A DNA stretch of 64,000 bases from Mustelus asterias (taxonomy: Eukaryota): positions 5,208,001-5,272,000 of the forward strand of contig NW_027590117.1 of assembly GCF_964213995.1 (NCBI RefSeq), written 5' to 3'. Every line of letters starts with the position of its first letter. Position 1 is the stretch's first letter. The notes under the pieces are model-generated. The model ran no database searches. It was not told the origin of the DNA and saw only the letters and a list, made by a program, of their open reading frames with translations. Positions 27,162 through 27,412 of this stretch are shown piece after piece. Made by a program: the position numbers and the translations under genes.

Positions 27162-27403
27162 ATCTGCCAAAAGATAAAACACTGGAAAATCTCAGCAGGT
27201 CTGACGGCATCTGTAAAGAAAGAAAAGAGCTGACGTTTCGAGTCCAGATGACTCTTTGTCAAAGCTTTGACAACGGGTCGTCTGGAATCGAAACGTCAGC
27301 TCTTTTCTCTCCTTACAGATGCTGCCAAACTTGCTGAGATTTTCCTGCATTTTCTCTTTTGGTTTCAGATTCCAGCATCCGCAGTGATTTGCTTTCATTT
27401 GTT
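27162..27403. mobile_element. Palindromic non-autonomous element with hammerhead-like motifs
   Basis: Arms ~27167-27264 and 27265-27362 with no spacer (AAAG|CTTT). TSD AAATAAG at 27155-27161 and 27404-27410. The paralogous site at ~30933 is empty. Confidence 0.88.
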
Positions 27404-27412
27404 AAATAAGCA

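Follow-up and report, generated by a model that had tools for sequence, protein, structure and literature searches.

The stretch of DNA that we analyzed, hereafter the window, comprises 64,000 nucleotides of Mustelus asterias contig NW_027590117.1 (positions 5,208,001 to 5,272,000, forward strand) and is part of a cluster of tRNA genes and histone stem-loops in a genome of 3.7 Gb. It contains, beside a decayed tRNA-derived gene, a palindromic insertion with a minimal hammerhead motif in each of its two arms. Positions in the element are numbered from the A of its central AGCT (+1), and the predicted ribozyme cut falls after +35. The features discussed below are as follows:

19706–19796, minus strand: solo insertion of the same family, independent of the palindrome, 14 nt upstream of tRNA-Ser(GCU); it has a duplication of its own (about 12 bp) and a broken hammerhead
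27155–27166, plus strand: left copy of the target-site duplication (TSD), one base lost and one changed; matches 27404–27416 and the single copy upstream of the tRNA-Ser at 30942
27167–27266, minus strand: short pLTR arm, +1 to about +98/100; it ends at the first of two sites at which arms of the family repeatedly stop, and shows 8 differences relative to the family majority
27228–27266, minus strand: minimal type I hammerhead with a U3-A8 core, predicted cut after GUC (+35); 5-bp helix II intact
27263–27266, no strand: AGCT, complementary to itself, where the two arms meet; it forms the 5' strand of helix I and likely marks the start of the RNA
27263–27398, plus strand: long pLTR arm, +1 to +136, with a tail of about 36 nt; 8 differences from the family majority
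27263–27301, plus strand: minimal type I hammerhead with a U3-A8 core, in which a recent C-to-A change at 27287 interrupts helix II
27404–27416, plus strand: right copy of the TSD, separated from the element by 5 extra bases; its last 4 nt are shared with the start of the tRNA gene
27413–27494, plus strand: decayed gene derived from tRNA-Ser(UGA), host sequence beside the insertion; Rfam tRNA score 28.5 bits, below threshold; aligns with the intact tRNA-Ser at 30942

The two 39-nt strings quoted in the preliminary description (27228–27266, minus; 27263–27301, plus) agree exactly with the sequence, and the palindrome that it reported is real: 84 of 100 positions pair between the arms around the shared AGCT center, and the full hairpin has a predicted energy of about −133 to −138 kcal/mol. 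Its limits, placed there at 27162–27410, had to be redrawn. An empty counterpart exists around the intact tRNA-Ser at 30942, where sequence homologous to the two flanks of the insertion is found without the element. Because a sequence of about 13 bp that flanks the insertion twice occurs only once in this empty paralogue, the element can be assigned to 27167–27398 (232 bases).

The identification of two type I hammerheads held, with one correction. Both motifs are genuine and helix II is intact on the minus strand, but helix II of the plus-strand motif contains a G·A mismatch at 27287, a position that is C in 25 of 30 paralogues and A here. The features of minimal hammerheads of Penelope-like elements (PLEs) are present, namely, a Watson-Crick 3–8 pair, N9.1, G10.1–C11.1, a palindromic helix III, and helix I. 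An Rfam search of the window returned no hammerhead match at E ≤ 10, the only match at the palindrome being a generic miRNA-type hairpin below threshold. A search with a type I hammerhead model, in agreement with the assignment, yielded 71 matches in 493 kb (the window together with the loci that we fetched) as against none in five shuffles; 51 had a U3-A8 core, 18 a C3-G8 core, and two a C3-A8 core. Canonical C3-G8 minimal hammerheads of other families are also found within the window, as are pLTR ends that come from related PLE families and are older and more diverged (10111–10173, 23392–23480, and 52713–52811).

The cluster unit is present in at least 40 copies, in both orientations, with 96–100% identity over the query among the best genome matches; copies lie on contigs C85, C102, C103, C130, C141, C155, C223, C243, C383, and C959 of assembly G000. 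All 30 of the near-identical loci that we fetched had kilobases of flanking sequence in common at about 97–99% identity, 27 of them over nearly all of 3.2 kb. These closest matches are therefore duplications of the tRNA/histone cluster, and we rejected them as independent copies and counted them as one insertion. Within the window we also observed direct repeats about 15 kb apart with 95–98% identity (42574–43811 and 57674–58923; 47556–47855 and 62854–63153), which take in histone stem-loop regions, and, at 54180–56960 and 45276–45507, a minisatellite array of about 38–40 bp and a C-rich short-period array.

The two independent family insertions in the window (19706–19796 and 27167–27398) each lie 14 nt upstream of a tRNA-Ser gene, and open chromatin at tRNA starts is one candidate reason for this placement. 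Targeting of tRNA genes was not supported, exact-pattern genome searches having given no independent cases elsewhere: all 28 matches to the 5'-facing pattern were paralogues of the 19706 insertion, and the 3'-facing pattern had six scattered matches.

To what kind of element do the arms belong? In the genome, 4392 exact matches were obtained for the U3-A8 pattern and 8647 for an anchor of 36 nt that lies downstream of the ribozyme; the reversed control of either gave none. Upstream of the arm, longer copies continue past a TATA-like box and reach coding sequence of GIY-YIG type. Of the 20 best endonuclease loci, 19 have the arm about 340–730 nt downstream of such coding sequence. One locus (L165), with the arm downstream, has an open frame of 518 amino acids with matches to RVT_1 (E = 1.7e-4) and GIY-YIG (E = 1.4e-3), both below the curated cut-offs, and contains a YIDD motif. 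A CX4CX2C motif between the reverse transcriptase (RT) and endonuclease (EN) regions, which can be set beside the PLE motif CX2-5CxxC as defined in PMC8557442, is found in L165, L166, and L164. Another locus (L239, G000:C1:112065500-112075000) is a decayed copy with the layout pLTR–ORF–pLTR, and the family includes examples of a pLTR on both sides of the ORF, an inverted copy, a one-sided tail, and a TSD. Thus, the position of the arm next to a GIY-YIG stretch, the domains and motifs of L165, and the layout of L239 identify each arm, on the evidence of sequence and with the clade assigned by motif only, as the pLTR end of a Neptune-type Penelope-like retrotransposon. The Penelope link proposed at the outset is upheld in the sense that the minimal type I hammerhead belongs to the pLTR of an element with RT and GIY-YIG domains. 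No intact ORF of a source element was found among the loci examined, a PDB sequence search with the L165 frame gave no matches at E ≤ 1, and two short EN fragments gave nothing significant in Pfam. Strong RVT_1 matches at L166:3072-4778 were assigned to an adjacent, different LINE and left out.

The U3-A8 core proved to be the state of the family and not the result of local decay. When positions 3 and 8 of the pattern were left free, it had 14,299 matches in the genome, and a hand tally of the first 100 gave 60 U-A, 27 C-G, 10 C-A, and 3 U-G pairs. The C3-G8 class is a sister subfamily, in which helix I is closed by U·G instead of U-A, and most C3-A8 cases represent CpG decay of this subfamily. 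(Other families in the examined loci are C3-G8 with different helices and have GC instead of CG in helix III.) The covariation at 3/8 that had been suggested is thus seen against the sister subfamily, whose existence implies that the 3–8 pair changed together once in the source lineage. We infer that the change consisted of two transitions, one at a CpG; it suggests selection on source elements but is a single event. The earlier argument from the copy at 19705–19797 stands only so far as its TTGACAA is concerned. That copy has lost most of helix II and has GAAG for GAAA, so it demonstrates shared descent and not conservation.

Excess conservation of the core and stems, which had been anticipated, was absent at the level of copies. 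In the 80 arms that reach helix I (20 of 100 arms do not and were left out), constrained non-CpG positions differed in 74 of 1829 cases (4.0%) and unconstrained positions in 149 of 3178 (4.7%; Fisher p = 0.32); for core positions alone, p was 0.12. Core G12, which lies within a CpG, was changed in 12 of the 80 arms. Likewise, among the 30 cluster paralogues the variable columns numbered 11 of 74 in the ribozymes, 23 of 158 in the rest of the element, and 84 of 535 in the flanks. Judged by these substitution counts, inserted copies decay neutrally, as expected of a transposon, and selection on the ribozyme is likely confined to source elements, the setting in which C3-G8 changed to U3-A8.

Folding predictions agree with the earlier supposition that in any read-through RNA the ribozyme would be sequestered by pairing with its antisense arm. 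The helices of the ribozymes have pair probabilities of 0.000 in the full palindromic RNA, forcing them to form there costs about 49 (plus) and 38 (minus) kcal/mol, and those of the plus arm are predicted to remain unformed even when the arm is folded alone. Because the ribozyme helices are so strongly disfavored in the full RNA, the further suggestion of conditional cleavage is unsupported, and the ribozyme of the copy at 27167–27398 is predicted to be inactive.

For the architecture of insertions we used the first 100 of the 8647 anchor matches, all on one contig, the anchor lying outside the ribozyme. These 100 arms represent 92 insertions (one locus, L084, was left out as a duplicate of the flank of L082): 47 short inverted, 25 short solo, 17 long solo, and 3 long inverted. 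Short forms lacking an ORF thus make up 72 of the 92. The arms of the 50 inverted insertions were long/short in 28 cases, short/long in 20, short/short in one, and long/medium in one; none was long/long. A long arm was combined with a shorter one in 48 of the 50, and 47 of 49 were mixed in the statistical test (p = 2e-12; L108, a weak and distant inverted match, was left out). In nine of the 28 long/short cases, the short arm stopped well short of +93 and thus missed the second site. Thirty-five of the 50 were flanked by a TSD of at least 10 bp, as compared with 1% for the control. The perfect AGCT junction was the commonest yet was seen in only nine of 47 inverted insertions; the exact 30-nt AGCT-centered junction occurs at 164 loci in the genome. 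Variants common to both arms of one insertion numbered 10 as against a permuted mean of 4.4 (4 of 2000 permutations); this is sharing above chance. Taken together, these features make it likely that the mirror arm is built at each insertion. In one case (L069), +3 to +99 is direct and +99 to +136 inverted, so that the arms do not overlap. We found no tandem arrays of ribozyme-bearing units among the 92 insertions, only isolated two-unit cases such as L058, and no MITE-like fixed ends or uniform structure, the ends being asymmetric (+100 and +136) and the junctions and TSD length variable.

The ends of the same 100 arms point to where the RNA may begin. Their 3' ends were bimodal, near +100 and +136. 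Their 5' ends fell at −3 to +4 in 56, 20 extended further upstream of +1, and only one lay at the cleavage site (+34 to +40). Position +1 is 30 nt below the start of TATAAAT in the U3-A8 family and the sister subfamily alike; as read by eye, the sister keeps the AGCT start and the TATA spacing with a different spacer. The DNA ends would place the start of the RNA at AGCT. The Penelope element of D. virilis has a TATA-less internal promoter (PMC2377424), and promoter type therefore differs among PLEs. The sequence TTTTAG|CT at the element start looks like a 3' splice site as well, and in D. virilis an intron has been described as ending at helix I (PMC4209133). A splice-acceptor origin of the 5' pile-up was not favored, as no common upstream exon was found among 37 solo-type junctions.

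In all, we think it very probable that the palindrome is one old, TSD-flanked insertion of two head-to-head short pLTR copies bearing hammerheads, multiplied later with the cluster, and that it is a by-product of integration with a ribozyme predicted to be inactive. How the two arms were joined can be proposed only tentatively. The RNA would begin at AGCT, 30 nt below the TATA-like box of the pLTR, and the element protein would nick both target strands, about 10–17 bp apart. Reverse transcription would be primed at +136 by one nick and at about +100 by the other, and both cDNAs would extend to the uncut 5' end of the RNA and join via the self-complementary AGCT or other microhomology. A dimer of the PLE protein would thereby prime both nicks on one uncut pLTR transcript, each nick using one of two start sites separated by 36 nt, and the palindromic helix I strand, at the extreme 5' end of the RNA, would act as the sticky end by which the cDNAs are joined; we rate this scheme at somewhat less than an even chance. 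Two-nick priming, if true, would account for a tail that is always one-sided as well as for the palindromic junction. In agreement with two-nick priming, PMC11167929 describes for PAc, the Poseidon element of Anolis carolinensis, cutting and extension of both target strands, two internal RT starts, uncut RNA as the main substrate, and a predicted dimer; it also reports that the RT start site did not differ between strands, which counts against the scheme.

The same parent element could instead have given rise to the mirror arm by fold-back or self-priming of one cDNA or of an antisense template. Both the palindromic junction and the variants common to the arms of one insertion are in keeping with such an origin, and self-priming on an antisense template is favored in PMC3846280, which describes an inverted pLTR, a one-sided tail, and a TSD (an inverted pLTR with a one-sided tail is likewise described in PMC8557442). 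We nevertheless consider it unlikely: self-priming does not readily explain the absence of long/long insertions (0 of 50) together with 20 cases with the tail on either arm, and non-overlapping arms such as those of L069 fit two primers on one RNA. Much less likely still is the original view, according to which the palindrome belongs to a separate, non-autonomous family of retrozyme type that moves as a unit, with ribozymes whose cleavage is conditional. About half of the sampled insertions are inverted, 72 of 92 are short and lack an ORF, the exact AGCT-centered junction recurs at 164 loci, and non-LTR retrozymes have been proposed to derive from pLTRs (10.64898/2026.07.22.740005). But the arm is the pLTR of an element with RT and GIY-YIG domains, ORF-bearing elements end in this same sequence, only 50 of 92 insertions are inverted, junctions are heterogeneous, 5' ends lie away from the cleavage site, tandem arrays of ribozyme-bearing units are absent from the 92 insertions, and the helix probabilities in the full RNA are 0.000. 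We give the least credence of all to co-option of the copy by the host as a source of hairpin RNA or as a regulator of the tRNA cluster. In its favor, at least 40 paralogues of the cluster contain the copy, which lies immediately upstream of a tRNA-derived gene; that gene is decayed, however, and the ribozymes vary as much as their surroundings (11/74, 23/158, and 84/535 columns, as above).

An integration by-product of this kind has close counterparts. A U3-A8 core was already known from about 1300 Schistosoma motifs in a 2014 study of pLTR minimal hammerheads that includes those of Schistosoma Cercyon elements (Cervera & de la Pena 2014, PMC4209133). That study describes PLE hammerheads with an extra base between positions 9 and 10.1, G10.1–C11.1, a palindromic 15.2/16.2, a short helix I, mostly single dispersed copies, and opposite-strand pairs, as here, along with low activity in vitro. 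The present case differs from those in belonging to a vertebrate Neptune-type family, in having a C3-G8 sister in the same genome, and in its 5-bp helix II. The one supplement file of that study that was searched names no shark, and our literature search found no paper on hammerhead ribozymes of Penelope elements in cartilaginous fish, no relevant paper on Neptune Penelope elements in sharks, and no title on twin priming of inverted PLE insertions. Insertions of EN+ PLEs (Pen2a_Av, PMC3846280; PMC8557442, its figure 2; D. virilis Penelope, PMC2377424) resemble ours in their head-to-head pLTRs, palindromic junction, tail of 30–40 bp at one end only, and TSD of about 10–17 bp. Unlike those, our palindromic element is minimal, without an ORF or upstream pLTR, and both of its arms start at helix I. 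PAc is alike in its two internal RT starts, which define the tail, and in the insertion of uncut RNA, and differs in clade, in its canonical C3-G8 core, and in an ORF that starts inside the ribozyme, the ORF here lying further downstream. With the non-LTR retrozymes of 10.64898/2026.07.22.740005 the element has in common a non-coding unit, a type I hammerhead, and a pLTR origin; active ones are defined there as tandem units, whereas ours is dispersed, has unit ends away from the cleavage site, and is known from DNA alone. PLEs with a U3-A8 core, with hammerheads paired on opposite strands, and with inverted pLTRs tailed on one side only have thus all been published. The insertion is an ordinary minimal one whose core variant has been described before, and its novelty lies at most in exemplifying a vertebrate family. 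The family does offer a natural C3-G8/U3-A8 sister pair within a single genome, with which a non-canonical hammerhead core can be tested, and the strict pairing of long and short arms leads to a testable model of how inverted PLE ends are built, a step left open by the papers cited.

Finally, we note several junctions that lie elsewhere than in the commonest class. When 30 of the 76 loci that read beyond the tail were examined, about 20 aligned to the pLTR; among these, eight started at +1 to +10, six at +93 to +107, and two at +36/+37. Given the last two and the 5' end of L239 at +34 to +36, some templates may be cleaved. L239 and L254, whose 5' ends coincide with the predicted ribozyme cut (+34 to +36), provide a weak hint of cleavage in vivo. 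The six read-through copies that start at +93 to +107 (L249, L256, L257, L263, L265, and L271) do so at the location of the second 3' end site. In two insertions, L072 and L124, the boundary of TSD and element has a G in place of the A at +1; a copied cap could account for it.
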